Assembly (NCBI RefSeq): GCF_963678635.1
Contig: NC_087064.1
Coordinates: 32,809,028-32,873,027 of the forward strand
From: Symsagittifera roscoffensis
Taxonomy: Eukaryota
Direction of reading: 5' to 3'
DNA: 64,000 nucleotides
Positions 18,913 through 50,695 of the stretch are shown here, one piece after another. A model generated the notes under the pieces. It saw nothing but the letters and a program-made list of their open reading frames with translations. It was not told the origin of the DNA and did no database searches. The position numbers and the translations under genes are program-made. Every line of letters starts with the position of its first letter. The first letter of the stretch is position 1.

Positions 18913-19245
18913 GTGTTATCAAGTAGCATAATAATGGGGTTCATCACATTTTCTGTGTGTTTACTATTTTTTTGTCATCAACCTATCATTGGGTCGGCTG
19001 AAAGAGATATCGTTGTCAATTCAACAGTTAACATCGAATGGGCATCTTTGACTTTTATAATTCCAGTCATTGGACCACTGACTCAAACCAGAAAAATCTG
19101 TCGAAATTTCAGCAATTACTATTGTCTAGAAGCTTACGAAGCGATTATAAACAACCCAGTTTTGGCTTTACTTCCTTATGTCAATGTTGAGTTTCCTACT
19201 CACGATGCTCTGAATTATTTTAATTTCTGGCTGGAGCGTTTTGCG
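18913..19245 (+). pseudogene. 5' half of a disrupted paralog of the secreted-protein gene at 49946-50695.
   Basis: ORF 18913-19515 begins with a signal-peptide-like N-terminus. Residues DIVVNSTVNIEWASLTFIIPV...CRNFSNYYCLEAYEAI...ALNYFNFWL align to DLVINSTVDVQWTSLTFTIPV...CSNFSYYYCLDAVEAI...ALAYHNYWL of the intact paralog. Similarity is lost after about 19245 and the ORF tail is MITE-derived. Confidence 0.7.
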
Positions 19246-19424
19246 AGTGGAAAGTTTAGGGCGTTGTTTCTGTCAATGTTCAGGCAAACAGATCAATCAA
19301 ATACTAAGATACCCTCAACTCTGGTTGCCCCTTTTGCTATTTTTTTCCGACATCCGTTTTTAGCTGACTCAGAAACCCTATTTTTCCTAATAACATTGTT
19401 TGCACCAATATACAATAAACTTGA

Positions 19425-19595
19425 GGGGGCGAAAAAAGCGGTTTTTTTTGGTTTTAACATTCAAAAAGTGTCAAAAATAGCGTTTTTTTCAAAAAAAAAT
19501 ACCACTGGCGCCTAAATTTTTTTCCCAAAATAGGTTCTTTATAGAGCTTAAGAGGGATTCAGAAAATCAAATTAGTCAGCCTAAAAAAGCCTTTT
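19425..19595 (+). mobile_element. Internal fragment of the hAT-like MITE family, without TIRs.
   Basis: Matches the internal part of copy A (…aaaatagggtctttttagtgctttgggagagctcggaaaatcaaattggtcg…). Confidence 0.55.
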
Positions 19596-20664
19596 TTGCA
19601 ACCAAGTTTTGCAAGATTCTAGCGAAGAAAAACGAATCTTGCAAGAATTTTTCAAGATTTTGAAAAAATACAAACTTCTCGGTAATTATCTTTTAGATTG
19701 GCAATTTTATCGTGCAGTCCCAAGAAGCTCATCGGAGATCATTATGATTTCAATTTGAAAAAAATTCATCGTGCAGTCCACTCAAAACTTGGCCATTGCA
19801 ACAGGAGGGCCCACTAGATGCATGAATCCAACATCCAGGAGATGAGTCCTCTGAACAATTTTTGGTACCCCATTGTATTGCCCTTGCAAAGTCTGGTACC
19901 CGATTGCATTGCCCTTGCTGATTGTCTACAACATTGAGTCTAATCTAGGATTTTTCTTGGATCATAAATAAACAGTGCAAGACGTTGGTTGCATGAATGT
20001 CAACCAGGGGAACAACAGCGGTTCTCTATCAAGAGCTGAACAGCTCGTAGATTGCGCCTTTACTTTTGAATAAATCGTCTTAAAAGGACTTGAAAAACTT
20101 TTTGGACTCGTACAGCATCCTTATGTATCCTTTGCCTTAACAAAAATCGCTAAAAATTCCAAACATACGAAAAAAAATTTGAAGTAAATTCTTAGCATAA
20201 TGCAGAATGTTGCTCATTTTAGGTGTATGGAATATAAACTTAGCAAAAACCTAGCATTGTGAATGCAAATCTCGCAAGAAATAAGCTAAATTAAGGTATT
20301 TATTTGGAACAATTTTTCAAGATTTGCTTTCATTTGCTTTCTTAAGCTAAACATTTAGAATTTTCTTTTCTTAATTTTTCAACAAAATTGAAAATAGTTT
20401 TAAGCTATATGTGTAATCGTAGTTGAGTATTTTAACTCTCAAAAAGGGGAATGATAAACGAAATCCCCCGAATGCAACATACAAGCTATGAAGAGAAATT
20501 TTTTCTTGAAGACATTTGTGAGCATTTTATCTCTTTAACCGTAACCGGTTTTTGCGGTAGAAATTGATTTAAAACATCTGCATGTATGTGAAAAGTTTTG
20601 GTTTCAGTGAAGAATTGAATATTTTGAACTTTGTTACTTTCCCCGCTCAAAGAGAGTACGTAAG

Positions 20665-20903
20665 CAAGACTGCTCGTATCAGGGTGAAGCCTTAAATGTT
20701 CCGACTGCATTTCAAGGCTTATGAACTAGTGTTTTTTTTGAAGAAAGTAGTGTTTTTTTTAAATAAATTTTGCATCCGTTATTTTCAAGCGAACAATTCT
20801 CGGAAGACTTTAAACGCAGTCGGAACATTCAGGGCTTCGTCCTGATACGAGTAGTCTTGTGACAAGATTACTCGTATCAGGACGAAGCCCTGAATGTTCC
20901 GAC
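20665..20903. mobile_element. Palindromic MITE-like element. It has a 41-bp arm, a 113-bp internal region, then a perfect 41-bp inverted pair with a 3-bp spacer.
   Basis: gtcggaacattcagggcttcgtcctgatacgagtagtcttg (20819-20859), then tga, then the exact reverse complement (20863-20903). A related arm lies at 20665-20705. A truncated family member is at 47198-47340. Confidence 0.7.
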
Positions 20904-20940
20904 CTAACTTTTAAAAGTCTATGTAGGGGTGTTGGGCAGG

Positions 20941-21348
20941 TGGAACCTGATCTAAACTATATTTTATGATTGGATAAATTAAATGTTTTACCAATGTAAA
21001 GTATTTAATATTAACCAATCATGATCCATCTAACTAACAACCCACTTATTTGTAAGTGCTGAAGTTACTTGTAATTTCAGCACCAGAGAGATTTGAATTT
21101 AACTTAGAAATTAGTTGGACTCTCCCGAGCACTTCAGCAGCCGCAATAAACCAGTATACCCTAGATCTATTGAGCCTAGCAGAGACTAGTTAAACAACCT
21201 GAGACTAGATAGTATAAGAGTAAGATTAGGATCGGTATTAGACTAAGAAGTTGCACGAATCTATCCGGCCGAAAATAAGATAGCGTGACGAGCAGACGGT
21301 GTACCCTATCCGAAATTACTCTATGAGTTACACTCCAGTCCAAACTCA
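20941..21348 (+). repeat. 5' LTR (408 bp).
   Basis: Base-for-base identical, by eye, to 39499-39906. Starts TGGAACC and ends AAACTCA. Confidence 0.9.
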
Positions 21349-21350
21349 TC

Positions 21351-21373
21351 TGGTGCGACCATAAGTCTCGAAC
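21351..21373 (+). promoter_or_regulatory. Candidate primer-binding site.
   Basis: TGGTGCGACCATAAGTCTCGAAC begins 2 nt after the LTR end. TGG plus the complement of a tRNA acceptor/T-arm is the usual PBS form. The same motif is conserved next to the LTR of the degenerate copy. Confidence 0.55.
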
Positions 21374-22003
21374 AAGACCTTATTAGATTAGAATTAACCA
21401 AAATTAGATTAGAAATTAGACAAAAACATTTACAAAATGTTATACGACAATAATTTAATTGAAATGTCTCTCCGACTCAATAGATCCGAGCCAATATTCC
21501 GAACCATAATAGAACTACCCGGAATTGGAAGAAGACATCGAACCAAAGACGACATACGACAAAGTAGAAACTTGCCGTATAGTTACATGATAGTTCGGCA
21601 AAAGCCAGAACAAACTTTTATATTTCGAATACTACTTGCAATGAATTTAGATTTCCATTTGCAAACATAAAACCTTGAAGTAAATCTTCAAAATCATTTC
21701 AGGCGCTAAACAAAATTAATATTATACAATAACGATTGATAAAAAGATCTAAGATCGTTTTCCTAAAATTCTGCAGTATTATACAAAACATGTTTGAAAA
21801 ATATTTATTGAAAAAAAAAAAAAAATAAAAATTAGTAGCATGACAATAAATGGTTAGTAATCATAAATCATCCTGTTGTTCCAGCTTCATCACCTAAAAC
21901 ATAACAGCAATCATCAACTCACTAATATCATAAAATACTAAATCTTTCCTTTACACAAATTTAAAACCTCATTAAAACTTAAAGTCACTTAATTTTAAAA
22001 CCA

Positions 22004-22148
22004 GATCATCAAGGCTTATCCTTGGATCTTAAATCATTTTCTACTTCATTACATTTTAAATTTGATCATCAAGGCTTATCCTTGGATCTTAAATCATTTT
22101 CTACTTCATTACATTTTAAATTTGATCATCAAGGCTTATCCTTGGATC
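22004..22148. repeat. Perfect 60-bp tandem repeat, 2.4 copies, in the retroelement leader.
   Basis: Unit gatcatcaaggcttatccttggatcttaaatcattttctacttcattacattttaaattt starts at 22004, 22064 and 22124. Confidence 0.9.
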
Positions 22149-22664
22149 AAACAGAACAACTTTGTTCTCCCCCACCCACTTAATTAGTGTCTAACGACCT
22201 CAAACGTCGATTCACTACCCAACCCTTTCTAAAGACCCAAGACTAATAGAAATTTTTAAACAAAACTAATCATTCAAATTAGGATAAACAGTGAAGAACT
22301 TCGGTTATTCATCCTTCACTTGATCCCCCCTCTTACCAGACCCAGGATAAATCTTAGACTTAGTAAGTTTAAAATAGTATCTAACGAACTACTCGCGTTC
22401 TAATTATACCTGAACCTTGTGGATCGATTTACTATTCTCCAACCCTTGAACACAATCACTACCCCTAAGTAAGATTAAGTAAGTTAACACCTTAGCTTAT
22501 ACTAGTCACGAGAAAGTAAAAATCATTCTTCGGAATCGATATACTTTTCTCTCCAACCCTAAACAAATAGACCCAGGTTAAGCTAACCAAAAAATCGTAA
22601 GAACTAACAGTTTAGGAAAATAGAAATCATTTAACAACCTTTTGCACCCGTCATCCTAAACCTT

Positions 22665-23132
22665 ATGTCATTTAAAAACCTAGGGAATAAACAAACAATC
22701 GTTTTACACAATTGTGAAATAGATAACAAAAAATACGACCTTGTAATCACACCTCATACACAAACAGTTGGATACATTCGAACAAAACGACAAACACTAA
22801 AGAGAAAAATAATCACTAAACAAAGACAAATAACACGAAAAAGATTTTCAAAAAATCGAAACGCATTTTCAGAATCAGAAACCAACAGTTTAGACGAACT
22901 CTACAAACTAAAAGAATCAATAGATAAAAATTACCCACAACACGATCAATTATATTTTTCTGACTCAGAAACAACTTCAAATTCATCACAAAGAGGAAAA
23001 AGAAGAATAAAAAAGCAGTATAAACACAAACCAGTACATCTATACAACTGGAATCAACCAATTCGACACATTAATAATTACATATTAACAGTCATCGAAC
23101 GAAAAAATGAGTTCAACGCACACCCCAGGTGA
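22665..23132 (+). CDS. Leader ORF (155 aa, very basic K/R-rich) that overlaps the gag-pol start by 26 nt in another frame. Coding status is uncertain.
   Basis: ORF-track entry. The stop lies downstream of the polyprotein ATG. A-rich sequence biases toward lysine codons, so this may be spurious. Confidence 0.25.
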   Translation: MSFKNLGNKQTIVLHNCEIDNKKYDLVITPHTQTVGYIRTKRQTLKRKIITKQRQITRKRFSKNRNAFSESETNSLDELYKLKESIDKNYPQHDQLYFSDSETTSNSSQRGKRRIKKQYKHKPVHLYNWNQPIRHINNYILTVIERKNEFNAHPR

Positions 23133-26100
23133 CGAAACTCCAGATGATGATGAAATCTTTCCTTTTATAGTAGATGCAGATACTGATAGAGGACAACACA
23201 TATTTTGTCAAAATTTACTCGTAAATTTATTTGAACCCGGAATCAGTCCATGTAAAACAGAGTTCCCCGATGTAAAAATCAAAAGACAAATCATAGATCA
23301 CTATCTAAAAGATATATGCAACATAACACAACAATATGGAATCTACTCTATAGAATTCACTTCCCCAAACCATAATAATAGAACATACACTATTCAAACA
23401 GACGACCTTGATTTAGAATTTTCAAAAGTTTTTTCAGAATATATAAAAAGCATACAATACCATAACTCACAAAGAGCAAACTCCATTTTCACCAATGAAG
23501 TTTTCGCACTAATATATAGTTATATTTCGATATTAGAAAATGAACTCCCATTAACAAATGTCTCACCGACAGAAACATCTAAACATTTAAGAGTACGACA
23601 TGAAATCACACTACTCTCTAGTTATTTAAACATCATTAAAGAAAATTTCACGAAAGACGACGTTTCACAACATACCAAACACGATTTACAAAAAATTTTA
23701 GCATGGTTCATAATAGATTATTTTACACACAATATTGATTTAATTGCACAAGCAAGAAAAAATTTTAGACCCCAAAACTCGAACGATGATACAGCTATCA
23801 CAGAACAATCAGATTATGTTTGGGACCCCGAATGGTCTCATCCCGTATTTATAAACTTTCCACAATCAATCTCAAGTCAAGCAATAGGTACAATATCTTA
23901 CATAAGAGATTATGTAAGAGTAATACCATTAACAATTGATGCAACACCATTAAACTATAATACATTTTTACCCGATACACAAAATAATAGTTTAAACTCT
24001 ACAGTCATACACAATGAAAACCTCAATGGAACTAGGAATCTTACTCAACAAGATATACAGACACCATCACACTTCATAAATGAAGAAATTGTACACACAA
24101 CAACTACACAACAAAGTATTTCACCAATACGCCCAAATTTAACAACACCAAGAAATACAAATCCTTCACAAACACAGGTAACCTTACAATCAACCGTTAA
24201 ACCTTCGGTTGCCCCTAAATATTCACATATGGATTACCAAACATACAAACCCATGACAATACCATCAAAAACACGCAAAACATTCACTAGAAACAACTTT
24301 GCAGACCATAATTATAATTATACACATCCATCAAAAACAAATTATAAACCACAAAGAAATTTTAATCAATATACAAAACCTCGAAACTGGGATAACCCAA
24401 CGGCCCAATATAATTCCACAAATTTTCAACCAAATCCTCCACAGGATCGCAGTGAAAATTACCCATTTTTTCAACAAAATAAAAATAAAAAACAAACATC
24501 TTATCAAATGGATTATTTATCCTCAGATGAAGATTTCTTACAACCAGATATATTTGCACCAAATACTCAAGAATATCGTAGACAAGGAATACAGAAAACA
24601 CGTACAAACCATAGAAATTTTTCTCCACAATCAATAGATGCACAATATCAACAACCAATTCAACAACCAAATCCAATTAATATACAATCTTTTCAACCAA
24701 TTCAACAACAAAATCCAATGACTACACACTCGTATCAACCATCACAAATGCAAAATGAAATACCACTCCCGTATTATCTTCAACAACATGAAATAACAAG
24801 AAACCAACTTTCAAATTTTTCTCAAATGCCAAATGCAGCTGAATCATTACAAATGACAATGAATCCATACCTTATGGGTGGATCATCAATAACATCAAAT
24901 AAACCCTTAATGGTTTTCACAGGAACAGACCCTGAATACTCTGTAGAAGATTACTTAAATGCAGTAACAGCAAATTTAATTTTAAATATTGGACCTGAAC
25001 CAATTAACACGCCACTACATCAAAACTGGATACATCGACGCACAGCGTTGATACAAACAACCTTAGATGGCGCAGCCCAAAAATGGTTTTCAGTACTACC
25101 TCAAGAAATAAAATCAAACTGGAAAAGATTTACACAAGAATTTTCAAAAATGTTTGACTCCGAAAGAAACAAACAACAACAAAGAGTTTTATGTAATGAA
25201 ATTCGCAGATTACCAAACGAAACCATCAAGCAAATAGCAGTAAGAATCGAAACACTAGTTCGAAAAGCATATTCACTAAATACACATGACTATAAAAACA
25301 CTAAGATGACAGAAATCTTAATGATGACCTTAACACCACAATTAAGGAAAATAGCAATAAAAAAGAGAGCATCACATCCTTCTTCAATTCGAGAACCCGA
25401 TTTAGATTTTAGAAAACTAGTAGACAAACTAGAACAAGCAGAAATCACAATGAAATTAGAAGAAACGGAAAATCTGAAATTACAATACGTTAACAAAATT
25501 GAAACGACTCCCACTAATATTAATAATATACAAGAATCAGAAACAGATCTCGTTGAAAAAATCACTGAAATACTCAATATTTACGAAAAGAACCCGAACT
25601 TTAAAGGCAAACCATCTTTCAAAAAATGGTGTAATTATTGCCGACGATACGGACATAGTATTTCCGAATGTAGACAAAAACAACAAGATAGTCAAAATAA
25701 ACCTCAAAAATACAAAGAACCAAATAAATCATTTTATCAATACATGAAAAAAGATCAAAACCTACCAAACAAAAATGTATACAGCAACAACAGTTCAGGA
25801 AAACCACTCCCAAACAATACAAGCTATACAAGAAATCAATCTCCATATAACTCAAGTTATAGAGGAAGATCACCAGAACGAAGAAACACGTATAATTCAT
25901 CACAAAATCACTACAATAGACCGAATAGTCGAAATAACTACTCCAGATCAAATTCAAATACACAACGATTTGTTTCTAGATCTAATTCTCAATCAAGAAA
26001 TAACTATTATCCAAACAACCAATCACGAAATTCATCATACAATAGGAATAGAAACTACTCCTATAATCGAAATAGAAGTTATTCAAACAACCGAAACCAG

Positions 26101-29100
26101 AATTACCCGAACAATCGATCAAGGAATAACTCATATAATAGATCGAACTATAACAGACCAAACAATAATTACCAAAACAGATCACGAAATAATTCACAAA
26201 ATCGACACTCAAGTTATAATAATCGTTATAGAAATTATTCCCAATCACCACACCGGAATAATAATAACTATAATAATTCTAATAATCGCCACAGAAGTAG
26301 TACACCTAAACATCAAAGACAAATCAATCAAGTACAATCTAATCCAGAAACAACATCAGACCCTCCAGGTATTGATGACACAGTAACTGATACGTTACAA
26401 CTCAATCAAATAAACTGTACATCATCAGATTCAGAAAGTGATACTGAAAACACTCTTTCTATCAATATGATAAAAGTCGAAAATGACTATGAATCTGTCA
26501 TATATGAACAACCCTTTCCATCACACATATATGAAAATCAATCAGAATTTCTTCAAAATTATTACACTACACCCATAAATTCCACACCAACAACGCAAGA
26601 AACAAATGAGATTAACACTACAAATCAAACCAATAAAAACACCAAAACAAAATGCTTGAATACAAACCACATTTATCAAAATATACAAAAAGAACAACCC
26701 AAAGAAAAAATTTGGACAATACCATTTCTCTTAGAAAGCCCAAGAAATAAAGAATTTCAACCACCAGACCTTGAAATAGATTTTTTAATTGATTCAGGAG
26801 CAGAATCAAACATAATAAACATTCCCACATGGAATGAAATAAAAATCTTACACCCAAAGCTAACACCTCTTGAAACCTCCAGCAAACTAGCGACAGCACA
26901 AGGATCAACATTGATAAACTACGGAAAAATCCAATTATTTCTCCTCCCTACCAGAACAATGGAACAAAGTAAAATTTTAAATAAGCCATTTAAACAAATA
27001 TTCCATATCACCGATATTAAATATAATATCATTGGAATACCATTTATTTCAAAGTATATACCAACAATTAACATACTAAATAGTAAAATATTAATCAAAG
27101 ATAAATATACAAAAACAAAAGAAACATCCTTAACATTTTTTCAAAGATTGAATAAACAACCACCATTCTTTTCAAAATTTTATCCGATATTTAACCAACA
27201 AAGAAAACACCTGAAACCACTATCAGGAAACATCTATAATTTTTCAATCAAACAAGTTCACCAATATGATAAAGCACAAAACAAACAAAAATTTTATATG
27301 TCAGATTTTGAATTCAAACCGATTCATAAATTTTTCAAAATCACAATCTCTTCAATAAAATATTTGAAAAATTCGAATTCAGATATCATCTCCTTACATG
27401 TCTATAACAACACACCTTACCAAGTAACATTACCATTAGGAGTTTTAGGATATTGTGAAACCAACGCAACAATATCACCAATACACGAAAAAGCCTATCG
27501 CGTAAATAATATACTCCAATTACTAGATATTTGCCAATCTACAATTCTTAATGAAGAATTATCTATAAATAATATAATAAGTAACGAAAACAGAAATACG
27601 GATTATTTCACAAAAACTCCATATTTCAAACCTACATTCAACATCAGTAACTACACAGAGGACCAACAGAAATTTTTAACAATGTTTAATTTCCAACATT
27701 CACAAATAACACAAGACGAATTTGAAAAGTTAGCCAAACAGCTAATTCAATATTCATCAGTCTATGCAACATCAAAATTCGATGTTGGCAAAATCAGTTC
27801 ATCACTACATCTCCCATTAAAACCAGACGCAGTTTTCAAAAAACAAAGAGCAAGTAAAGTACCAATTCACTTACATGATAAAGTAAACAGATTACTCGAT
27901 ATTTTAGAGCAATACAACATTATATCACCGGTTAATAAAGAAGAACAACCAAAAGGCAACACATTCATCAACCCCGTTATCATTCTAGCTAAAGGAGAAT
28001 CGTTAAAAATCGTTCTCGATGCTAGATACCTCAATTCACTCATAGATGAATCAAAATGTAATTGGCTCATTGAACCAATACAAGTTATTTTAACAAAAAT
28101 AAACGGCAAATACTTCACAACCGCCGACATGAATAGTGCATACAATCAAATGCCACTAGATGAACAATCACGACGTTTAACACAATTTGTTATCGGAAAC
28201 CAACAATATGAATTCAACCGCATATTCTATGGAATATCCATAGGACCAGCAGCATTTTCAGCCTTTATGAGCAAAATTTTTAGACCACTAATACTCAAGA
28301 AAAACGCAATCACCTATTTAGACGATGTTTTTATGCAATCACAAACAAAAGACGAAATGTTCAAAGTTTTAGAAACATATCACCAAATACTTCAGAACGA
28401 AAATCTGAAGGCCGCCCCCGATAAATCACACTTCTTTTTGACTAGAGTTAAATTCTTAGGACATAATATAGAAAGAAAAACAATCACTCCACTGAAATCA
28501 CGCATTGACGCTATTCAAAAACTTCAACCACCAACAAATAAAAAGAAAATCCAAGAGTTCCTTGGAATGTTAAACTTTTTAAGTAAATATGTTTATAAAA
28601 TGCAATTATACCTACGACCATTTTATAACATCCTTAGACAACAAAACAACTTTGAATGGAATACAGAACATCAAACACGATTCGAAGAAATAAAGAAACT
28701 TTTAACTGAACAAATTTCAAACACAATTCCAGACCCTGATCAACCATTTTATGCAATGTGCGATGCTTCGAACTTTGGCATCGGCGCAGCATTATTACAA
28801 TCACATAATGGTACAAATAAAATGAACCTCATATCAGCAAATTCTCGATTATTCACTCAAGCAGAGCTACGACTCTCAACTCTAATGAGAGAATGTACAG
28901 CCATAATATATACACTTACAGAATATGAATTTCTGATACTTGGATCAAAACATCCCACAGTTTTGTTCACAGACCACAAACCAATCATCTTTCTTTTTAC
29001 ACAGAAATCTAACCCAAACCACCGAGTTTACAGATTTCAACTAATTCTAATGAAATTTCCAAACTTACATATAGTTTGGACTGCAGGAAAAAATCTTGCA

Positions 29101-31329
29101 TTACCAGACACCTTAAGTCGAAATACACCACCTGAATTACTTACACGAAAAACAACAGTTGAAATACCCAAAAATATAAAATTCTACCTTGCAGAAAACG
29201 AAACATCACCTCGATTAGAATGCAAATATGCAGTAAAAACTGATATTGAACAATCACAAATAAATAATTTACAACATTTCCCACTTTATTTAGATTGTCA
29301 AAATAATCATTATGAAGTTGACCTACTTGGAACATCAACTTTTAAACCAATTCCATATTCTCAATGGATAAAAAATAACACCCAACAAAAACGAACAAAA
29401 CAACACCTACCTAAAAAAGACCATTTTCCACTAATTGAAAAAGAAGATTTAACTGATAAAATAAATTTATCAGGACCACAAACAAATGATTCAAAATACA
29501 CAATAAATCAAGTTTTTGACCTTCACGACCCACTTGATACAATACCATTATCTAAATTAGAAATCGAAAACATTTTTCTCCCCCCAACAGAAACAATTAC
29601 AATTTCAACACTGAAACAATATCAAAACCTTGACCCAGTAATTCGACAACTAAAATCATGGCACAAATATAAAACTAAACCTATCAAAGCAGATTCAACC
29701 ATTCTAGGAAACAAAACACTCCTCCGATACTTTCGCAAGTTTAACAATACAACAATTAACGAAAATACAGACCTTTTAGAGTACAACCTTAATGAATCTA
29801 CAGTTCCCTGTCTCCCTATAAGTATGATTCTTATAGCTTTTAATATTTCACATACACAAAACATTAAAGGACACTCTGGATCAGAGAAAACATATTCAAA
29901 TTTTATACAAAATTTTTACTTCCCAAATGCACCAATTTGGATAAAAGTACTATGCAATGATTGTATAGTATGTCAATTAAATAAACCTTACCCAAATCAA
30001 AAACAAATAGCACAAAAACAAGATTTTAAAGGACAAAGTTTATACTTTAATCATCGTATCTCATTTGATACTAAAGGACCAATTTCACCCTCATCAGAAG
30101 GAAACTCCTACATTATGGTAATTGTTGACGCATTTACACATTATGTAGCACTTAACCCAGTACCACATTGTAACGCTTATTACGCATACACAACACTTTA
30201 TGAACACTGGATAGCAAAATTTGGACTACCAGAAATTTTAGTCACAGACAATGGTACAGAATTCATAAATAATGAAATAATAACACTATGTCATTTATAC
30301 AACATTAAACACAAACCACGTACATCTCATGCACCTTGGACAAACGGCTTAGTCGAAGGTATGAACCGTTCACTACAAGAATATCTTAGATGTATCATCA
30401 ACGGAAATGATACCAAATATACCGAATGGTCAGCAGATGTAAAATTATTTCCATTAGCATATAATTCACAAATCACGACAACTTTAGGAATGTCACCATA
30501 CGAAATGGTTTTCAACCAAAAGCCACGCAAACCAATAATGTTTACAGCAAATTCCCATAAAAACGCACAAGGTTATTGTCAACCAAATAAAGACTCAATT
30601 TGTTATAACCTACCATTACATACGCACGATGAAGATCATTTTCATCACCCACAAATCCTTAAATTAGCCTCCGGTACACACACCGAATGGATTTTAAATA
30701 GAGATAAGAAACACAATGAAATTTACCAAAAAATAACGAAAAAGTTATTACAAAGACAAAACATAAATGAACAAATCAATTCACGTTTTACACCAGCTTC
30801 CGATTTAAAAATTGGAACATTTGTTTTAATACCTAATTTTAATACTCAAAAAGGAATTTCTAAAAAATTACAACCCCTCCGAAAAGGACCCTATCAAATA
30901 ATTGCAAAACCCACAGATGTCACATATAAAATTATCGACTCAAACAAAAAAGAAATCGTTCAGCATCGAAACAACCTATTACCTTATTACCCAAAAGAAT
31001 ACGCACTCCGCGAATTAACCCAATTATATTCTTTCACAGGATTAAAAATTATTCAAAACGAACCACATCTGAAAAACACAGAACAAAATGATAACCCCAC
31101 CGAAAATCAAAACACAAAACCAATCGCTACCAAAAACAATACACAAAACCATAAAGAATCTCCAAAACAAAGAAAAAATAGAAAAATGACAGAACAAATA
31201 ATACCCCAAGAAGAAATAGACAAATCAGAACATAGAAAGACAACAAGACTCCGAAATCAACCACGTAAAAACTACAAAATGTTCATCCCCCAATCTAAAA
31301 TATTAAAGAAAGTAGAATTTAAAAATTAA
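23107..31329 (+). CDS. gag-pol polyprotein (2740 aa): N-terminal extension, gag-like, CCHC zinc knuckle, Arg/Ser/Asn-rich region, aspartic protease, RT, RNase H, integrase.
   Basis: Uninterrupted 8.2-kb ORF. Motifs CNYCRRYGHSISEC, FLIDSGAESN, TTADMNSAYNQMPLDE, YGISIGPAAFS, ITYLDDVFM, RVYRFQLILMKFPNLHIVWTAGKNLALPDTLSRN, H-x6-H-x29-C-x2-C, VIVDAF...VTDNGTEF...TNGLVEGMN, LRKGPYQI. Confidence 0.93.
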   Translation: MSSTHTPGDETPDDDEIFPFIVDADTDRGQHIFCQNLLVNLFEPGISPCKTEFPDVKIKRQIIDHYLKDICNITQQYGIYSIEFTSPNHNNRTYTIQTDDLDLEFSKVFSEYIKSIQYHNSQRANSIFTNEVFALIYSYISILENELPLTNVSPTETSKHLRVRHEITLLSSYLNIIKENFTKDDVSQHTKHDLQKILAWFIIDYFTHNIDLIAQARKNFRPQNSNDDTAITEQSDYVWDPEWSHPVFINFPQSISSQAIGTISYIRDYVRVIPLTIDATPLNYNTFLPDTQNNSLNSTVIHNENLNGTRNLTQQDIQTPSHFINEEIVHTTTTQQSISPIRPNLTTPRNTNPSQTQVTLQSTVKPSVAPKYSHMDYQTYKPMTIPSKTRKTFTRNNFADHNYNYTHPSKTNYKPQRNFNQYTKPRNWDNPTAQYNSTNFQPNPPQDRSENYPFFQQNKNKKQTSYQMDYLSSDEDFLQPDIFAPNTQEYRRQGIQKTRTNHRNFSPQSIDAQYQQPIQQPNPINIQSFQPIQQQNPMTTHSYQPSQMQNEIPLPYYLQQHEITRNQLSNFSQMPNAAESLQMTMNPYLMGGSSITSNKPLMVFTGTDPEYSVEDYLNAVTANLILNIGPEPINTPLHQNWIHRRTALIQTTLDGAAQKWFSVLPQEIKSNWKRFTQEFSKMFDSERNKQQQRVLCNEIRRLPNETIKQIAVRIETLVRKAYSLNTHDYKNTKMTEILMMTLTPQLRKIAIKKRASHPSSIREPDLDFRKLVDKLEQAEITMKLEETENLKLQYVNKIETTPTNINNIQESETDLVEKITEILNIYEKNPNFKGKPSFKKWCNYCRRYGHSISECRQKQQDSQNKPQKYKEPNKSFYQYMKKDQNLPNKNVYSNNSSGKPLPNNTSYTRNQSPYNSSYRGRSPERRNTYNSSQNHYNRPNSRNNYSRSNSNTQRFVSRSNSQSRNNYYPNNQSRNSSYNRNRNYSYNRNRSYSNNRNQNYPNNRSRNNSYNRSNYNRPNNNYQNRSRNNSQNRHSSYNNRYRNYSQSPHRNNNNYNNSNNRHRSSTPKHQRQINQVQSNPETTSDPPGIDDTVTDTLQLNQINCTSSDSESDTENTLSINMIKVENDYESVIYEQPFPSHIYENQSEFLQNYYTTPINSTPTTQETNEINTTNQTNKNTKTKCLNTNHIYQNIQKEQPKEKIWTIPFLLESPRNKEFQPPDLEIDFLIDSGAESNIINIPTWNEIKILHPKLTPLETSSKLATAQGSTLINYGKIQLFLLPTRTMEQSKILNKPFKQIFHITDIKYNIIGIPFISKYIPTINILNSKILIKDKYTKTKETSLTFFQRLNKQPPFFSKFYPIFNQQRKHLKPLSGNIYNFSIKQVHQYDKAQNKQKFYMSDFEFKPIHKFFKITISSIKYLKNSNSDIISLHVYNNTPYQVTLPLGVLGYCETNATISPIHEKAYRVNNILQLLDICQSTILNEELSINNIISNENRNTDYFTKTPYFKPTFNISNYTEDQQKFLTMFNFQHSQITQDEFEKLAKQLIQYSSVYATSKFDVGKISSSLHLPLKPDAVFKKQRASKVPIHLHDKVNRLLDILEQYNIISPVNKEEQPKGNTFINPVIILAKGESLKIVLDARYLNSLIDESKCNWLIEPIQVILTKINGKYFTTADMNSAYNQMPLDEQSRRLTQFVIGNQQYEFNRIFYGISIGPAAFSAFMSKIFRPLILKKNAITYLDDVFMQSQTKDEMFKVLETYHQILQNENLKAAPDKSHFFLTRVKFLGHNIERKTITPLKSRIDAIQKLQPPTNKKKIQEFLGMLNFLSKYVYKMQLYLRPFYNILRQQNNFEWNTEHQTRFEEIKKLLTEQISNTIPDPDQPFYAMCDASNFGIGAALLQSHNGTNKMNLISANSRLFTQAELRLSTLMRECTAIIYTLTEYEFLILGSKHPTVLFTDHKPIIFLFTQKSNPNHRVYRFQLILMKFPNLHIVWTAGKNLALPDTLSRNTPPELLTRKTTVEIPKNIKFYLAENETSPRLECKYAVKTDIEQSQINNLQHFPLYLDCQNNHYEVDLLGTSTFKPIPYSQWIKNNTQQKRTKQHLPKKDHFPLIEKEDLTDKINLSGPQTNDSKYTINQVFDLHDPLDTIPLSKLEIENIFLPPTETITISTLKQYQNLDPVIRQLKSWHKYKTKPIKADSTILGNKTLLRYFRKFNNTTINENTDLLEYNLNESTVPCLPISMILIAFNISHTQNIKGHSGSEKTYSNFIQNFYFPNAPIWIKVLCNDCIVCQLNKPYPNQKQIAQKQDFKGQSLYFNHRISFDTKGPISPSSEGNSYIMVIVDAFTHYVALNPVPHCNAYYAYTTLYEHWIAKFGLPEILVTDNGTEFINNEIITLCHLYNIKHKPRTSHAPWTNGLVEGMNRSLQEYLRCIINGNDTKYTEWSADVKLFPLAYNSQITTTLGMSPYEMVFNQKPRKPIMFTANSHKNAQGYCQPNKDSICYNLPLHTHDEDHFHHPQILKLASGTHTEWILNRDKKHNEIYQKITKKLLQRQNINEQINSRFTPASDLKIGTFVLIPNFNTQKGISKKLQPLRKGPYQIIAKPTDVTYKIIDSNKKEIVQHRNNLLPYYPKEYALRELTQLYSFTGLKIIQNEPHLKNTEQNDNPTENQNTKPIATKNNTQNHKESPKQRKNRKMTEQIIPQEEIDKSEHRKTTRLRNQPRKNYKMFIPQSKILKKVEFKN
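25630..25671 (+). other. Nucleocapsid CCHC zinc knuckle (C-x2-C-x4-H-x4-C).
   Basis: tgt aat tat tgc cga cga tac gga cat agt att tcc gaa tgt, in frame. Confidence 0.85.
25800..26330 (+). other. Arg/Ser/Asn/Tyr-rich low-complexity domain (RS-like) between the NC and protease.
   Basis: About 175 residues of repeated SRNNYS / NRNRSYS / NRSRNNSYNR motifs. Confidence 0.8.
26740..27080 (+). other. Aspartic protease domain.
   Basis: IDFLIDSGAESNIINIPTW, with DSG at 26791-26799. The matching segment exists in the degenerate copy. Confidence 0.8.
27810..29130 (+). other. Reverse transcriptase plus RNase H.
   Basis: RT motifs A through E, with YLDD at 28324-28335. RNase H CDASNFGIGAALLQ then TDHKPI, and the linker ending NLALPDTLSRN at 29124. 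Confidence 0.85.
29800..30950 (+). other. Integrase: HHCC zinc finger, DDE core and GPY/F-like C-terminus.
   Basis: HTQNIKGH...CNDCIVCQ, D(VIVDAF)...D(VTDNGTEF)...E(LVEGMN), and LRKGPYQIIAKPTDVTYKI. Confidence 0.85.
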
Positions 31330-31929
31330 TTTTAAAATTTTATACTTCACAATCTTGAAACCTCCGTAACATTTTTCATTTCCATTTTTCAAAATAACAT
31401 GCTCACAAGTACGCAATAATTCTAGTTCAAAATAGACCAATAGGATTCATCCAATCCGCCACTTTCTCTAACTCAAACTAAGATCAATTAGACGAATAAT
31501 CTAGAACTCCAGGCACATCTCTAACTATAACTTTACAACCTCCAGGTCAAAAATAAGCAAACCACTCCAACTTGACAGCTAAAATAAATATCACCATAAT
31601 ACCGTACCCCTCCCTTATCTAATAACCCAAAGATCAACAATATTTCCCCAACTCAGACCACGAATACCCCCAAAACAAATTTGATAACTTAGCCTAAAGT
31701 CACAAAATGAAGATTTTAATTAGCCTAAAGTATAAAAATCTCACCATACCCCGGATCATTTGACAAACAAAAATAAAGAAAAAGACGACCTCCCAGTCAC
31801 CATGAAAATTGCCCCCAACAATTTTTTACGAAACTCAACCCACTTGTCAAAAAACTAATAAATAATTCGACCACACTAGAAAATCGCCTCAAACAGCAAA
31901 AAATATTCGACAAAGAGATCATTTCTTAA

Positions 31930-32345: not shown

Positions 32346-32350
32346 AGTAA

Positions 32351-37883: not shown

Positions 37884-37889
37884 CAGGTA

Positions 37890-37965
37890 AGTATGAACTA
37901 AATGAATATTACTAACTAATTAAAATATTGAAAAACTCACCATTCCTTATTCATGTTTTCTTTAG
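37890..37965 (+). other. Intron-like signal immediately after the ORF3 stop: consensus donor, TACTAAC branch point, pyrimidine tract and AG.
   Basis: gactaaCAG|GTAAGTATg ... atTACTAACtaat ... ttcatgttttctttAG|att. Confidence 0.3.
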
Positions 37966-39498: not shown

Positions 39499-39906
39499 TG
39501 GAACCTGATCTAAACTATATTTTATGATTGGATAAATTAAATGTTTTACCAATGTAAAGTATTTAATATTAACCAATCATGATCCATCTAACTAACAACC
39601 CACTTATTTGTAAGTGCTGAAGTTACTTGTAATTTCAGCACCAGAGAGATTTGAATTTAACTTAGAAATTAGTTGGACTCTCCCGAGCACTTCAGCAGCC
39701 GCAATAAACCAGTATACCCTAGATCTATTGAGCCTAGCAGAGACTAGTTAAACAACCTGAGACTAGATAGTATAAGAGTAAGATTAGGATCGGTATTAGA
39801 CTAAGAAGTTGCACGAATCTATCCGGCCGAAAATAAGATAGCGTGACGAGCAGACGGTGTACCCTATCCGAAATTACTCTATGAGTTACACTCCAGTCCA
39901 AACTCA
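39499..39906 (+). repeat. 3' LTR (408 bp).
   Basis: Identical to 20941-21348. Preceded by a weak purine tract cccGGATGGG. Confidence 0.9.
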
Positions 39907-40335
39907 CAGGGGTGGATCTAGGATTTTCTCGAGGGGGGGGGGCGATTTTTCAAAAATTTTCGAAATTTTTGTCGACCTTTTTTTTTTAGGTCGACCCGAA
40001 TTGATTTTCCGAGCTCTCCCAAAGCACTAAAAAGACCCTGTTTTAGTCAAATTTTCTGCGCCGCAGGCATTTTTTTGGAAAACAGGCCAAAAAAAAGGCG
40101 TTTTTAGTCACTTTTTAAAAAATTTTGACCAAAAAAAATGCGTTTTTTTGGCGCTCGCTCCCCCCTTAGAGTAAGTATATATTGGCGCCTAAGGCGCCTT
40201 TAGAAAATTTTTAGGGTCCGTCACCAAATATGGATATCTTAAAATAGTACAAAGGGGGGACCCTTTGGGTCGGCAGGGGGCCGAATCCCTGAGGGAGGGG
40301 GAGGGGAGCGTCCGCCCCCCCTAAATCCGCCCCTG
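39907..40335 (-). mobile_element. hAT-like MITE copy B (429 bp). It is the target of the retroelement insertion.
   Basis: Begins CAGGGGTGGATCTAGGATTTTCTCGAG and ends CCCTAAATCCGCCCCTG, the reverse complement of copy A's organisation. The 5' flank at 20937-20940 (CAGG) equals the first 4 bases of this MITE. Confidence 0.8.
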
Positions 40336-40639
40336 GTCTTGTCAATTTGTGTCAATTTAATGCAGCATGCAGTGTTTGAGGATCTAATTTTTTCGGGTCG
40401 GTTATTATTTACCATTCTAACGTTGATTGATCCCAGACGACAAAATCATTTCATTGACCATGAGGGGTGCTGTTTTAGTCAGTATCACAGTTACTCTTTT
40501 TGGGGATACCAGAGACTACTTATGACGGCTGAGGAGTACATAGCCAAACTAACTGGTACATGTATGATAAATGCGTTCCTGTAAGAGCTATTTTGGTATT
40601 AGTCAGAATCCCCGCGCCATTTTGAGTCCTTCTCATTTT

Positions 40640-41110
40640 AGCCCTCCAGCTCGGGTCTACGATTTTCTCGGAGGACGGAGGTTTAAAAAAATCAAAAAAT
40701 TTTAGATCGACCAAAATGATTTTCTGAGCTTTCCCATTTTGAATGGTGGCGCAGGATATTTTTAGGCTTGTGGCAGAGGAGAAAATTTTCTGTGGCGTTG
40801 GAAATTTTTTTTAAAAAGGCCAAAAAAGTCCCCCCTTTGGTACTATTTTACATTTATTGTTGGCTGACCGAGCATCAAATTTTTCTAAAGGCGCCAATAT
40901 ATATTAATTTTGAGGGGAAGTGCGCGCCAAGAAAAATACGCAATTTTTTGGTCAAAACTTTCCAAAAAGGACTTAAAAACCCTTTTTGGCTTGTTTTTTC
41001 AAAAAATTGCGGTTCTGAAAAATTAGGTCGAAATAGGGTTCTTGATATTGATTTGGGAGAGCTCGGAAAGACAATTTGGTTGACCATAAAAAAGGCCAAA
41101 ATCTTCAAAA
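40640..41110 (+). mobile_element. Diverged member of the same MITE family.
   Basis: cagctcgggtctacgattttctcggagg at the start. Internal ggcgccaatatatattaattttgagggg block in the opposite orientation to copy B. ORF 40768-41118 within it is spurious. Confidence 0.5.
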
Positions 41111-41384
41111 GTGGATGATGTCGCGCTGTTTATATGGAACTCCGAGGCACCCCAAACGAGTTTTTAGCCACTGTTTCTCAAACTTTTTCCTGTTGCTCAA
41201 AAAAAATAGCGCAGCAAATTTTGCCTGTTGCTAAACTATTTAGGATAAATGAGATCTGACAGTATCAATGGAAGATGGTTAAATCAGATTGGTCGGTCTA
41301 AAGAAACAACTTTTCAAAATTCCCTTCCCTCCCCGCGAGAAACAGAAAACCTTTGCACCAACTGTCTTCATCTATCATACTTGT

Positions 41385-41680
41385 ACCACTTCACAGATTA
41401 TAGCGAGGAGCATTAACAACTTAATTACATTCAAGCTTTTCACTTACCAGTTTGTCAAGTGAACGTAATTAGCAAACTGGGTTATGGATTGGGGCCTTTG
41501 AGACGGACCAATCACATTGCAGGAGTGAGGAGACAACTTCCAGGAGTTCCGTATCAATTGAAAGTTGGCTCGGAGTGGAGTGAACAAATACCCTATGACA
41601 ACCCTGAAGACTTTCTCACTTTCAGATGGTTCAAACAAAATGTCATGTGCAAGGAGCAACCCTGGATTTGTAAATGACAC
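41385..41680 (+). pseudogene. 3' portion of the disrupted secreted-protein paralog. It pairs with 18913-19245.
   Basis: HFTDYSEEH then a stop, then ORF 41459-41677 NVISKLGYGLGPLRRTNHIAGVRRQLPGVPYQLKVGSEWSEQIPYDNPEDFLTFRWFKQNVMCKEQPWIC. This aligns to the C-terminus of the 49946-50695 protein. Confidence 0.7.
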
Positions 41681-41745
41681 ACTCTCTCTGAAATGAAGGG
41701 AAATAGCGAATGCATTGACTTAAGGTCACGTGAATTATTGTATAT

Positions 41746-42148
41746 CAGGGATGGATCTAGAATTTGTCCACATTTTTGTCCACATTTGTCGCAAATTTTG
41801 TCCACATTTTTTTAGGTCGACCAAATTGATTTTCCGAGCTCTACCAAAGCACTAAAAAGACCCTTTTTGGCCAACTTTTCTGGGTCGCTATCAAAATTTT
41901 GAAAAACCAGACCAAAGAGGCGTTTTTAGGCAATTTGGAAAAATTTAACTGAAAAACATGCGTTTTTTGGCGCGCGCTCCCCCCTCAAATTTAGTATATA
42001 TTGACGCCAGAGGCGCCTTTGAAAAATTTCAGGGCCTGTCGAAAATGGATATCTCTAAATAGTACAAAAGGGGACCTTTGGGTCGGCGGGGGGTCGAATC
42101 TCTGAGGGACGAATTGCCCCCGCCCCTTCCACCCTAAATCCGCCCCTG
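41746..42148 (-). mobile_element. hAT-like MITE copy C (403 bp) with a perfect 8-bp TSD TTGTATAT.
   Basis: CAGGGATGGATCTAGAATT...CCCTAAATCCGCCCCTG. The flanking 8-mers 41738-41745 and 42149-42156 are identical. Confidence 0.8.
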
Positions 42149-47340: not shown

Positions 47341-47366
47341 CCCCACGCACGGCATGATAAAAGTTG

Positions 47367-48050
47367 GAGCCAGTTGGAGCAAAAAAATTCTTACCGAAAT
47401 CCGAAAATGTTCTTGACTTTTAGGTTGTTTCAAAACAATTGTAATGTGTAGAGAAGAACCGTGCATTTCTTTAACAACCTAATGTGCAATTTTCTATGGA
47501 TGAATATTTTTCCATCTAGTAAATCTCAAAACAGTCCATCCAAAAACAAAGATATCTTTCGTTTACTTATCGAAATAAAAGATATTCTTTGAAAAGCATT
47601 CGCGCATGTTACCAAAAGAAAACGAAAAATATCATTGCTTTATGTTTGGAAAAGTAAGCTAAACTATAATTGCATATCTAGAACTTTACTAGATAGAAAA
47701 CAACCCTGGATAGAAAGTTTCATTCCATACAAACGATTTGTCTAATGCTTTCAATTAGGAACAAATATTTGAAAGTAATCAAAACTCGAATTTTCTTTTA
47801 AAGAAATTACTTTTACAAATATATAAGGCTCGCAAGAGCAAAGCAAAATCAAAGAGGCAATCTTGTTGCAAGGGCTGCTGACATTAAACAAAATACACAA
47901 TTTGATCTCGTAATGATAAAAATTTCAATCATTGAGAGCTTTGACTTCGGAAATGGTTTGAAAACTTGCCAAATAAACAATCAAAACGGTTAAAAACAAA
48001 TTAGAAAAAGATGTGCAGTTTTTGTAATTAACTGCATACTTGATTTTATA
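47367..48050 (+). pseudogene. Segmental duplicate of the last 35 codons plus about 600 bp downstream of the secreted-protein gene at 49946-50695.
   Basis: ggagccagttggagc...gttcttgacttttag...caaaacaattgtaatgtgta... aligns to 50578-51290 at about 85-90% identity through ctgcatacttgatttt. The coding part carries a frameshift. Confidence 0.75.
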
Positions 48051-48069
48051 ATTTATTAAAAAATGATCA

Positions 48070-48368
48070 ATTAGCTACAAAACGACTTTGCGACCGTTTG
48101 TTCCCATTTTTCTTTATCGAAATAAGATTAAAAACTATTGGACTTCAATATAATAACTCATTTAACCTCCTTAGAGTTTTCATTGATGTACTCAAATTGG
48201 ACGGATAAAAACTAGATCATCAATTTTTCATGTCCTTAACTGGTGCAACCAGGCCTGGACAAAAGCCGGCAAAAGTTTCTGTTATTTCATCTGATCTTTT
48301 TATTTATTTCCCCCCTATTGCAATAGGGGGATAGTTAACAAGGTACACAATTCGTATATGCTTAACGA
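48070..48368 (+). repeat. About 300-bp dispersed repeat, copy 2 of 2.
   Basis: See 46036-46330. It abuts the end of the gene-fragment duplicate. Confidence 0.7.
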
Positions 48369-49945
48369 ATTGCACTACCGGACGCCTTTACTTTTATCTG
48401 GACGCCATGATAAAAGTAAAGTGATAAATATTCGCATATGGCTAAGTATTAAAAACAGCGAATGGCATACCTCAATTCAATTTGGGACGATTTCTAAGAC
48501 AGAATAAACCTCATATATTTTTAATTTGAGTTCAGGGCAACAACTTTTGAATGATATTTAGAAAATCTCATGAAACATTGCAATTTAAAAATGTCGAAAC
48601 TTGTCAGGAGAAAAGAAACTACCCCGAGAAAAAATGTTCCGTCACTTCCTTCGAAAGTCAGAACAATGAACTTAACTGCAGAATCTAGGACAAAATCTGG
48701 AAACCAGCAATATTCAAAAGAATTTGCTAACTGTCAAGTCCAAAAGACGCACGAGTAAGCAATTGTTTGTAAGCTGCATATTTTCACTGGCGTCCAGATA
48801 TTTCTCGCCAGCCAAAATCTACCTAGTGCTTAATCATTCGTCTGTGGAGTACAGTATTGGATATTTTATGGAATCCCATCCAAATTTAATGGAATCTATC
48901 GATATTTGTATGGAGTCTTAACTACTACCAATGATCCGACCTGATGTCATAACGATAGCTCGCGCCAATTTGTCAATCAGAAATAACGCCCAATCCATAG
49001 AACTAAACATCAATGAAAAATTAACGCAGAATCCTAATTTAGTGTATTTTTAAGATTAGAAAAATTCAGTCTGTGAAGATACAGATGCAATTTAGTGCTT
49101 CTACTGAGCAAAATGACCCACGTCTACTTTCATGCGCCGTTCATACAAAAATTCTGCATACTGGTAAGTTTGCACGAGCGGAGGCAAAAACTCTTTTTTC
49201 TGTATCTTTCAAAGCAAATATACCAGCAATAATATTTTCCAAACGATAAGTTTTGGTGTTGACTTGAATATTCATTAAGAAACACGGCAGTATCATTAAA
49301 ACTGACTATCTACAAGGGAACTGGCTAACATCTACGAGTTGTTCAGCTCTTCACGGAGAACCGCTGTTGTGCCACTGTTTGAGATCTACATGCAATTTTT
49401 TGGTTATTTTTCTGTGCTGGGTAATGTTGCCCCACCCTCAAGCAACGAGCACGGACCATGATGAACATTCGAGCTTTCATCTGATCTTTCCATCCAACCT
49501 TTCCGGAACCATAAGACCTTTCCGGAACATCCGACATTTCCAATGAGAGGCGGAAGGAGACGCAACCACTTCACCACCGCTCCCCAATCGAAACATTATT
49601 GATTGCTTTCGAACTAGCAAGTCGTTTTGAAAAGTTTTAAAGTACCTCAAATGTGCACTAAGGATAATACATGTGAAATGAACGTGAACTCGCTCTTGGT
49701 TAATTTTTTGAATATCAAAATACGGCTGTCCCCTCAAATACGTCATGAACGTGAAGATGAGATGAAAACCTTCATCTTGTTGTTTTTCTTTATCTTTTGG
49801 TAGAATTTTCCAGAAAACTGAACATCAATTCTTGAACTATCTGATCTCTGTTTCTGCTGAACTTTTACCAAGAAGACAGTAAATTGATTTTTGTTTAATT
49901 ATTAAGTTCAAGTTCAACAAATATTTGGCGAACTTATTTAACTAA

Positions 49946-50695
49946 GTGAAGCAATACTTATTAAAACATGTTGTAGTACAAATGATTATGTCAAAAATCA
50001 TTCTCGAATTTTTGTTTTTTGTTGTTCTATCTCAAGGTTTCGATACGAACGACCTTGTAATTAATTCAACGGTCGATGTTCAATGGACATCTCTGACTTT
50101 TACAATACCCGTGCACGAAGCAAAATCTTGCAGTAATTTTAGTTACTATTACTGTCTCGACGCTGTTGAAGCCATTAACTCGAACAGAGTTCCAGTTATG
50201 ACTCCATTTGCTGGTTTATTGCATACAACTGCTCTGGCTTATCATAACTATTGGTTGTGGCACTCTGCCGATGCTGAAGTTATGAACGTCTATTCAGCAC
50301 TAGTTGCTGAGAAACATAACCATTTCATCGATCAAACTTTTTATTATTTCATACACGGATACCATCATATGTTTATTACACCAAAAGAGTATCTCCACCT
50401 CCTCACAGATTACAGCGAGAATGGAAAAGAGTTGAACCTTATTCACGCGTATTACTATCCGGATTGCCACGTGAATATAATTAGCAAATTGGGTTTTGGA
50501 TCTGGTACACTAAGAAGGAAAAATCACTTGAGCGAAGAAAGGAAACAGCACCGAGGAATTCCATATCAGTTAAAAATCGGAGCCAGTTGGAGCGAAAAAA
50601 TTCCGTACCAGAATCCGGAAACGTTCTTGACTTTTAAGTGGTTCAAAACAATTGTAATGTGTAAAGAACAACCCTGGATTTGTTTGACAACTTAA
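49946..50695 (+). CDS. Small secreted protein of unknown function (249 aa, single exon). Intact member of a local gene family.
   Basis: Continuous ORF with a hydrophobic signal-like N-terminus (MIMSKIILEFLFFVVLSQG), conserved Cys residues and N-x-T sites. Paralogous fragments in this window conserve both its N- and C-terminal blocks. Confidence 0.7.
   Translation: MKQYLLKHVVVQMIMSKIILEFLFFVVLSQGFDTNDLVINSTVDVQWTSLTFTIPVHEAKSCSNFSYYYCLDAVEAINSNRVPVMTPFAGLLHTTALAYHNYWLWHSADAEVMNVYSALVAEKHNHFIDQTFYYFIHGYHHMFITPKEYLHLLTDYSENGKELNLIHAYYYPDCHVNIISKLGFGSGTLRRKNHLSEERKQHRGIPYQLKIGASWSEKIPYQNPETFLTFKWFKTIVMCKEQPWICLTT

Follow-up and report, generated by a model that had tools for sequence, protein, structure and literature searches.

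A putative three-exon gene with transposon-filled introns, a derived intronless paralog and a recent env-bearing retroelement in a gene-family cluster of the acoel Symsagittifera roscoffensis

The closest described relatives of the protein family discussed here are annotated in two acoels, Symsagittifera roscoffensis and Convolutriloba macropyga, and are represented by XP_063712940.1 and XP_075265059.1. These are true homologues, with profile E values from 1e-36 to 1e-10, that agree in length, in Cys pattern and in the C-terminal motif; they are only ~21-33% identical to one of the genes considered below, gene B. The locus in question lies in a 64,000-nucleotide stretch of S. roscoffensis contig NC_087064.1 (assembly GCF_963678635.1, positions 32,809,028 to 32,873,027 of the forward strand), referred to as the window, and comprises gene A, probably composed of three exons, its intronless paralog gene B, a decaying fragment of the latter, miniature inverted-repeat transposable elements (MITEs) and a long terminal repeat (LTR) retroelement. 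By structure the nearest described family may be RNase T2 (PF00445), which includes human RNASET2 (3t0o), the plant S- and S-like RNases, RNase Rh, E. coli RNase I and the pestivirus Erns protein (4dvl); it has no detectable sequence similarity to the acoel family, which possesses an extra C-terminal segment with the motif W-F-K...C...QPWIC. Even CalsepRRP of Calystegia sepium (1jy5), an inactive T2-like protein, can still be identified from its sequence as related to T2 (E 1e-13 to human RNASET2), whereas the acoel proteins cannot.

The mobile elements of the locus also have described counterparts. The LTR element resembles Ty3/gypsy elements with a captured viral envelope gene (env) in its LTR ends, the 4-bp target-site duplication, the gag-protease-reverse transcriptase (RT)-RNase H-integrase order and the presence of an env-like open reading frame (ORF), but at 19 kb it is unusually long for this group; its env-like ORF fits the class III fusion glycoprotein model of negative-strand RNA viruses. 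The MITEs, like hAT-type MITEs residing in introns, have terminal inverted repeats (TIRs) and, in one copy, an 8-bp duplication. The S. roscoffensis genome has 36.7% GC, with LTR elements making up about half of it and introns averaging 2.5 kb (PMC9911081). The transposon history of the locus is typical for an acoel genome. The window itself is AT-rich (~33% GC) and repeat-dense, and Rfam at gathering thresholds together with a tRNA scan found nothing along its whole length.

The locus is best explained as a local cluster of a fast-evolving, secreted, disulfide-containing acoel family. Gene A would be a three-exon member whose introns accumulated hAT-like MITEs; an env-carrying Ty3/gypsy element of 18,966 bp would have inserted very recently into its intron 1, in the window haplotype only, and a nonsense mutation in exon 3 would make the window allele probably null, with the alleles of two other assemblies intact. 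Gene B would be an intronless downstream paralog that lost a Cys-Cys (CC) pair, and between genes A and B there would be a partial, decaying DNA copy of the gene B 3' end. As a whole this account, with its acoel family cluster, three-exon gene A, recent retroelement and derived gene B, is considered likely to be correct; it draws on direct observations of collinearity, of empty insertion sites, of differences between alleles, and of the size of the family and the taxa of its named members.

With the 249-amino acid (aa) ORF at positions 49946-50695 used as the tblastn query, four places in the window were found to code for parts of one protein family. The match at 41378-41671 covers aa 149-246 (63% identity, E 2e-40) and contains one in-frame stop, that at 18991-19491 begins at aa 31 (32% identity, E 1e-17), and a disrupted one at 47357-47479 corresponds to aa 209-249 (51% identity, E 1e-7). 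A third piece collinear with the first two, at about 40437-40555, is weak against the 249-aa ORF (40405-40554, E 0.23) and clear with paralog queries, its segment 40438-40554 being matched by the paralog P0002 with E 8e-6 and by 31 family proteins with a best E of 5e-9. All four matches elsewhere in the window are on the same strand as the ORF, and no additional family copy was found when 164 family proteins were searched against the window. The presence of related coding pieces, well beyond chance, is confirmed.

The original prediction, made from the letters of the sequence, had described an N-terminal and a C-terminal block as collinear, as matching different halves of the 249-aa ORF, and as separated by a retroelement and three MITEs. 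All of this was borne out: the two blocks, exons 1 and 3 of Table 1, follow each other in order on one strand, and the LTR element and at least three MITE copies lie between them. The further claim that these elements had split the gene held only in part, as they do lie between the blocks but the breaks look like introns. The alignment proposed for deciding whether the split copy had been one gene supports a single collinear gene, which includes the third piece as a putative exon 2.

Table 1. Coordinates of the features of the gene A-gene B locus (positions in the window; exons and introns of gene A as predicted).
Feature	Position	Strand	Evidence
Gene A exon 1, putative signal peptide to ...FRALFL	18934..19271	+	tblastn E 1e-17; 3' end ambiguous
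MITE-a, degenerate hAT-like copy, begins 3-9 nt past the exon 1 end	19281..~19610	-	alignment with four other copies
Left target-site duplication CAGG, 4 bp	20937..20940	.	overlap of the L006 and L002 empty sites
Ty3/gypsy-type LTR retroelement, 18,966 bp, in gene A intron 1	20941..39906	+	self-BLAST, Pfam, empty sites
MITE-b, TIRs CAGGGGTGGATCTAGG / CCTAAATCCGCCCCTG	39907..40335	+	sequence and copy alignment
3' end of gene A intron 1, 101 bp, neither MITE nor coding	40336..40436	+	read from the sequence
Gene A exon 2 (RQNHFIDHEGCCFSQYHSYSFWGYQRLLMTAEEYIAKLT), bears the family CC pair	40437..40555	+	tblastn with P0002, E 8e-6; 31 family proteins match
Gene A intron 2, 841 bp, GTACATG...TTCACAG, phase 1	40556..41396	+	sequence; same interruption in L007
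Rearranged MITE inside intron 2	~40648-41110		copy comparison
Gene A exon 3 (DYSEEH*QLNY...QPWICK, stop TGA)	41397..41677	+	tblastn E 2e-40; three-haplotype alignment
MITE-d, just downstream of gene A	41746..42148	+	sequence; copy alignment
Pseudogene fragment, last 41 gene B codons and ~570 bp of 3' flank	47358..48047	+	blastn 82%
Gene B (= P0001), intronless, intact ORF, 237 aa from ATG	49982..50695	+	identical to P0001
Gene B 3' flank, co-duplicated with the fragment	50696..51285	+	DNA comparison

Gene A (18934-41677) is most likely an ordinary three-exon gene with transposon-filled introns. Two further haplotypes could be compared with the window: L002, a second contig of the same ENA sample, and L006, an 840-kb contig from another sample. 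The N-terminal block begins at the ATG at 18934. For intron 1 there are two in-frame donor candidates, GTCAAT at 19272 and GTTCAG at 19278, the former of which yields the canonical family spacing between the F-x-P and N-x-F motifs. The candidate acceptor, ttCTAACgttgattgatcccAG/A (a slash marks the boundary; AG at 40435-40436), is composed of a CTAAC branch-point motif, a pyrimidine tract and CCCAG/A ahead of exon 2, and the 101 bp that end there are identical in the three haplotypes. Exon 2 ends with ...AAA CTA ACT G/GTACATG and exon 3 starts with CTTCACAG/AT TAT AGC GAG, and their junction in phase 1 gives K-L-T-D-Y-S-E, the sequence conserved in the family. The discontinuities of gene A thus have GT...AG boundaries that restore the frame, with the donor of intron 1 at either 19272 or 19278. 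The conceptual spliced product of 245 aa covers positions 6-225 of the 248-position profile with a score of 219.9 bits (E 4e-69), and retains all invariant and near-invariant family residues, including the CC pair, except for a conservative change, F172->Y, that is also present in some other members of the family.

In L002 and L006 the spliced ORF is open (exon 1 was confirmed in L006 only), so that the alleles in these two other assemblies would encode an intact 245-aa protein. The window allele differs in exon 3, where a premature TAA at 41414-41416 stands in place of the AAA codon for a conserved Lys in L002 and L006. This nonsense codon, absent from the original prediction, is the only clear lesion of the window allele, which is probably null owing to it and to the fresh 19-kb insertion. 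The gene A MITEs are common to all three haplotypes. In a simulation, a 246-codon ORF of this composition remained stop-free in ~10% of trials at 5% neutral substitution and in ~1% at 10%. Because the MITE copies are only 72-81% identical while the ORF stayed open, selection has most likely acted on the gene A ORF from the arrival of the MITEs onward; a selected ORF fits MITEs residing in introns and not MITEs in a dead exon. A paralog, L007 (1530-6291), is interrupted at the same codon and in the same phase as gene A at intron 2 (ACAG/AT TAC TCG), with an in-frame TGA just upstream. Both introns are likely to be real because the junctions are of the GT...AG type, the phases are compatible, the spliced ORF is open in the other haplotypes and the site of intron 2 is shared with L007. 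Gene A was probably not broken by transposons, and its discontinuities behave as introns.

Several points weigh against this. The splicing of gene A is an inference from sequence; intron 1 has a weak donor of ambiguous position, MITE-a starting just 3-9 nt downstream of it, and this MITE could have inserted at the end of exon 1 or within that end; exon 1 was checked only in L006, being unreadable in L002; the window allele carries the premature stop; and L007, while sharing the acceptor, has no clean in-phase GT donor to pair with it. The location of MITE-a, the weak donor and the in-frame stop would also suit a different and unlikely history, in which gene A was once a single-exon gene, as are gene B and P0002, and was turned into a pseudogene in pieces by the MITEs and then by the retroelement. 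Against such a history stand the 101 bp at the end of intron 1 and the 92+286 bp of intron 2, which are neither MITE nor coding and lie between the MITEs and exons 2 and 3, the GT...AG junctions with their compatible phases, and the interruption site shared with L007. The spliced ORF, moreover, is open in two haplotypes with the family residues kept except at F172 despite the age of the MITEs, and the retroelement is absent from these haplotypes and was therefore not the original cause of the gene A split.

The LTR element entered intron 1 very recently and is polymorphic, being present among the three haplotypes only in that of the window. Its recent arrival follows from the identity of its LTRs and from the presence/absence polymorphism: the LTRs (20941-21348 and 39499-39906), each of 408 bp with TG...CA ends, are 100% identical, and in both L002 and L006 positions 20940 and 39907 of the window adjoin, overlapping by the 4 bp CAGG. 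The insertion took place in the first 4 bases of MITE-b. The gag-pol ORF (23107-31329, 2,740 aa) encodes gag, protease, RT, RNase H and integrase in this order (Pfam gag, RVT_1, RNase H and integrase), which together with the LTR ends and the CAGG duplication places the element in the Ty3/gypsy group. The env-like ORF (33475-36093, 872 aa) matches Pfam Monjiviricetes_fusion with E 3.9e-11, and an ORF of 597 aa that follows it (36090-37883) has no match. Judging by its identical LTRs and its polymorphism between haplotypes, this is apparently an endogenous retrovirus-like element of an acoel that bears env and is still active; being caught in one haplotype and absent in two, it would be mobile at present.

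The ENA contig ctg23342l differs from the window by one 1-bp indel over 20.6 kb, an extra C (GAGAGCC versus GAGAGC) at position 16438 of L005, corresponding to 25371 of the window, which breaks the 2,740-aa gag-pol ORF into two parts of 768 and 1,959 aa that lie in different frames. Over another 20.7 kb, compared through L001, the identity to the window is 99.80%, with 11 mismatches and 5 gaps; the window thus stems from an assembly that is close to that of the contig but not the same. The composition of the coding strand of the element is strongly skewed (GC skew -0.3 to -0.5). Positions 1-17000 of the window are occupied, on the minus strand, by an older, rearranged and inverted relative, ~68-77% identical to the element and containing an internal 3.6-kb tandem duplication (7851-11461 versus 11464-15078, 98.8%).

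The MITE family comprises copies of ~400-430 bp, which besides those listed in Table 1 are found at 18020-18447 and 55246-55541; they are old. Their TIRs read CAGGGGYGGATCTAGG. A perfect 8-bp duplication, TTGTATAT, was found in one copy only, flanking MITE-d at 41738-41745 and 42149-42156, and the family appears to be of the hAT type, the superfamily being assigned from the length of this duplication alone; no transposase was found for it. Within gene A the MITEs lie inside the introns and not at their edges, except for MITE-a at the ambiguous donor of intron 1. An 8-bp duplication that would point to creation of intron 1 by a MITE insertion was looked for around MITE-a/MITE-b and around the pair taken as one composite; only an imperfect TGTCAAT similarity was seen, which is not convincing. 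A palindromic, hairpin-forming element at 20665-20903, also in intron 1 (arms 86-98% complementary), may represent a second MITE family; a relative of it is located at 47196-47225, ~130 bp upstream of the pseudogene fragment. L006 apparently contains an extra duplicate of the segment matching 41723-44269, with 86% identity.

Gene B is situated 8.3 kb downstream of gene A, and is an atypical paralog. The original prediction took the 249-aa gene at 49946-50695 to be intact. Its ORF is indeed open from the GTG at 49946, and in both haplotypes compared, but the most likely start is the ATG at 49982, since the organism is a eukaryote; furthermore, the protein lacks, through a 7-residue deletion, the CC pair that is more than 90% conserved in an alignment of 53 family sequences. 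Comparison of paralogs by dN/dS is uninformative on recent constraint (pS 0.77-0.89, pN 0.36-0.44), and with pS saturated any traces of a retrocopy origin of gene B itself would be erased. A stretch of 311 bp, 49415-49726, about 250 bp upstream of the gene B ATG, occurs in the window haplotype but not in L002. CTGT microhomology at its two ends indicates either an insertion or a microhomology-mediated deletion, and the stretch has no repeat elsewhere in the sequences examined.

The fragment between the two genes had been described in the original prediction (as 47367-48050) as a partial fourth copy made up of the last codons and about 600 bp of downstream sequence, and this description stands. 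At the DNA level 47358-48047 is 82% identical to 50571-51285 over ~720 columns; it begins within codon 207-209, carries a stop and a frameshift, and its homology to gene B fades by 48072, where the repeat R1' (48069-48366, related to 46042-46330) starts. These direct repeats, 83% identical, bracket the region of the fragment, and may represent a transposon or mark where an old tandem duplication ends. Since the coding part of the fragment is no better conserved than its flank (86.3% versus 85.5% identity to gene B), the fragment is decaying neutrally. The original prediction also held that this copy implied a transcribed or recently co-duplicated 3' flank; the flank was indeed duplicated along with the coding end, but the fragment is uninformative about the gene B transcription unit.

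A partial DNA-level duplication of the gene B 3' end fits the fragment best. It could be regarded instead as a 5'-truncated processed retrocopy of the gene B mRNA, with the 600-bp flank as the 3' untranslated region: only the 3' coding end and downstream sequence are kept, as would result from reverse transcription truncated on the 5' side, and the genome is rich in reverse transcriptase. This is quite unlikely, as the fragment has no copy-specific poly(A) tail, similar short A-runs ending both copies, the homology runs ~90 bp beyond the last AATAAA (51215) and stops where the repeat 48069-48366 starts, and no target-site duplication was found.

The family to which genes A and B belong is large. 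A word-indexed protein search retrieved only three relatives, all from one ENA sample, and the closest relatives are proteins from ENA assemblies; the larger family is seen by an exhaustive profile hidden Markov model (HMM) search of 1.84 billion cluster representatives. This search, suggested in the original prediction for the 249-aa product, gave 242 representatives at E<=1e-3 and 141 at E<=1e-10. Of 30 clusters looked up, 24 were named, every one of them as an 'uncharacterized protein' of S. roscoffensis or C. macropyga. The six invariant residues of the 53-sequence alignment are M1, C50, C58, G173, C227 and C234; other conserved features are the CC pair, G-F-G-x-G and the C-terminal W-F-K-x-N-x-x-C-x-x-Q-P-W-I-C. 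No Pfam match was obtained for gene B at E<=1, for the 53 members at E<=0.01, or for the exon 1 ORF; sequence comparison with PDB gave no match with the single protein and nothing at E<=10 with the profile. The original description of a secreted, Cys-bearing family with no recognised motif agrees with these results, secretion being predicted from the hydrophobic N-termini of the members. The family can be considered fast-evolving, secreted and disulfide-containing, of ~230-280 aa, and acoel-restricted as far as databases show. Nothing relevant was found in the literature on an acoel family of this kind, or on RNase T2 in Xenacoelomorpha.

The presence and position of introns vary between the paralogs, among which L004, L007 and L010 are loci of the species that the window comes from. 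P0001 and P0002 are intronless, while L004 (the P0003 locus, 5870-10453) is a clean three-exon member of 272 aa (219 bits), whose introns, GTACAAG...CGTAG and GTGAAGG...TCAAG, are at positions unlike those of gene A; its intron 2 contains the same MITE family, and a search for MITE ends at its exon boundaries showed the MITE to lie inside the intron. L009 reads straight through the site of gene A intron 2, and L010 (4650-7247) consists of a tandem pair with an intron elsewhere and a frameshifted pseudogene. Several splice isoforms are present in RefSeq for the Convolutriloba members. The starts of database ORF fragments were rejected as a proxy for intron positions, being scattered and in many cases just internal Met codons, as in L009; likewise, a second, 285-aa ORF in L003 proved not to be a family member.

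The structure predicted by AlphaFold2 from the 53-sequence alignment (pLDDT 88.3, pTM 0.80) was compared with known folds. In Foldseek all of the top 17 hits were T2 or Erns proteins, with weak scores (E 0.02-0.1, TM 0.3-0.49), and a viral fold library returned large invertebrate RNA virus proteins and pestivirus Erns with E 4e-3 to 0.1, one of these neighbours being from Fuefuki virus, a nido-like virus (PMC5888908). The weakness of these matches, together with an hhalign probability of 0.1% against a five-sequence T2 profile, tells against a T2 relationship. By sequence the family does not qualify as RNase T2: there is no PF00445 hit in the 53 members and no PDB profile hit. The catalytic His residues of CAS I (..HGLWP) and CAS II (..HEWxKHGTC) are missing, no His or Glu being invariant or near-invariant in the 53-sequence alignment. 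An RNase T2/Erns-like scaffold is, judging by the model, somewhat favoured, and that the family would be devoid of T2-type catalysis can be said with greater assurance. On such a non-catalytic reading the protein would act by binding something and not by RNA cleavage. It can tentatively be suggested, though the odds are somewhat against it, that acoels expanded a secreted 'dead RNase' family of T2/Erns fold, with hundreds of divergent members that would be reused as binding proteins, perhaps in mucus, in defence or in the handling of symbionts, and that would undergo rapid birth and death with introns varying between paralogs. A weaker possibility still is that some introns of the family arose from the MITEs now filling them.

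The viral neighbours among the structural matches, pestivirus Erns and the large invertebrate RNA virus proteins, and the transposon-rich surroundings raise the question of whether the family derives from a virus or transposon, for example from an Erns-like glycoprotein of a virus that became domesticated or endogenised, instead of being a host family. This is very unlikely: the genes stand alone with their own predicted signal peptide and have no transposon domain fused or consistently adjacent to them, they stay put in the haplotypes that lack the retroelement, the RefSeq models are ordinary loci with isoforms in two acoels, and the structural scores are weak, with cellular T2 RNases scoring as well as Erns. 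That the N- and C-terminal blocks of gene A are remnants of two different, independently truncated paralogs, an objection foreseen in the original prediction, is hardly credible even in a family known to form tandem clusters with pseudogenes (L010), as the three pieces are non-overlapping, ordered and on one strand, tile the family profile exactly once with the frame kept at the junctions, lie without the retroelement only 2.2 kb and 0.84 kb apart in the three haplotypes, and have no leftover duplicated family sequence between them in the search with 164 family proteins.

Two tandem arrays complete the description of the window, one at 43894-44306 with an 86-bp unit repeated 4.8 times (71% matches), and another at 61346-61860 with a 146-bp unit repeated 2.5 times (98% matches).

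The locus brings together three stages of gene-family turnover, represented by a multi-exon gene that appears to work, a derived paralog without introns and a fragment in decay. There is a lesson for annotation too, as transposon-filled introns can make real genes look shattered in raw sequence, and prokaryote-style gene calls on 'metagenome' assemblies give such genes only as fragments. The family itself is of more interest: it is large, acoel-only among its named members and unannotated, and may have a dead-RNase fold. If this fold is true, it would provide the first structural handle on a large orphan family listed in RefSeq as 'uncharacterized protein' in acoels, animals that are relevant to early bilaterian evolution, regeneration and photosymbiosis.

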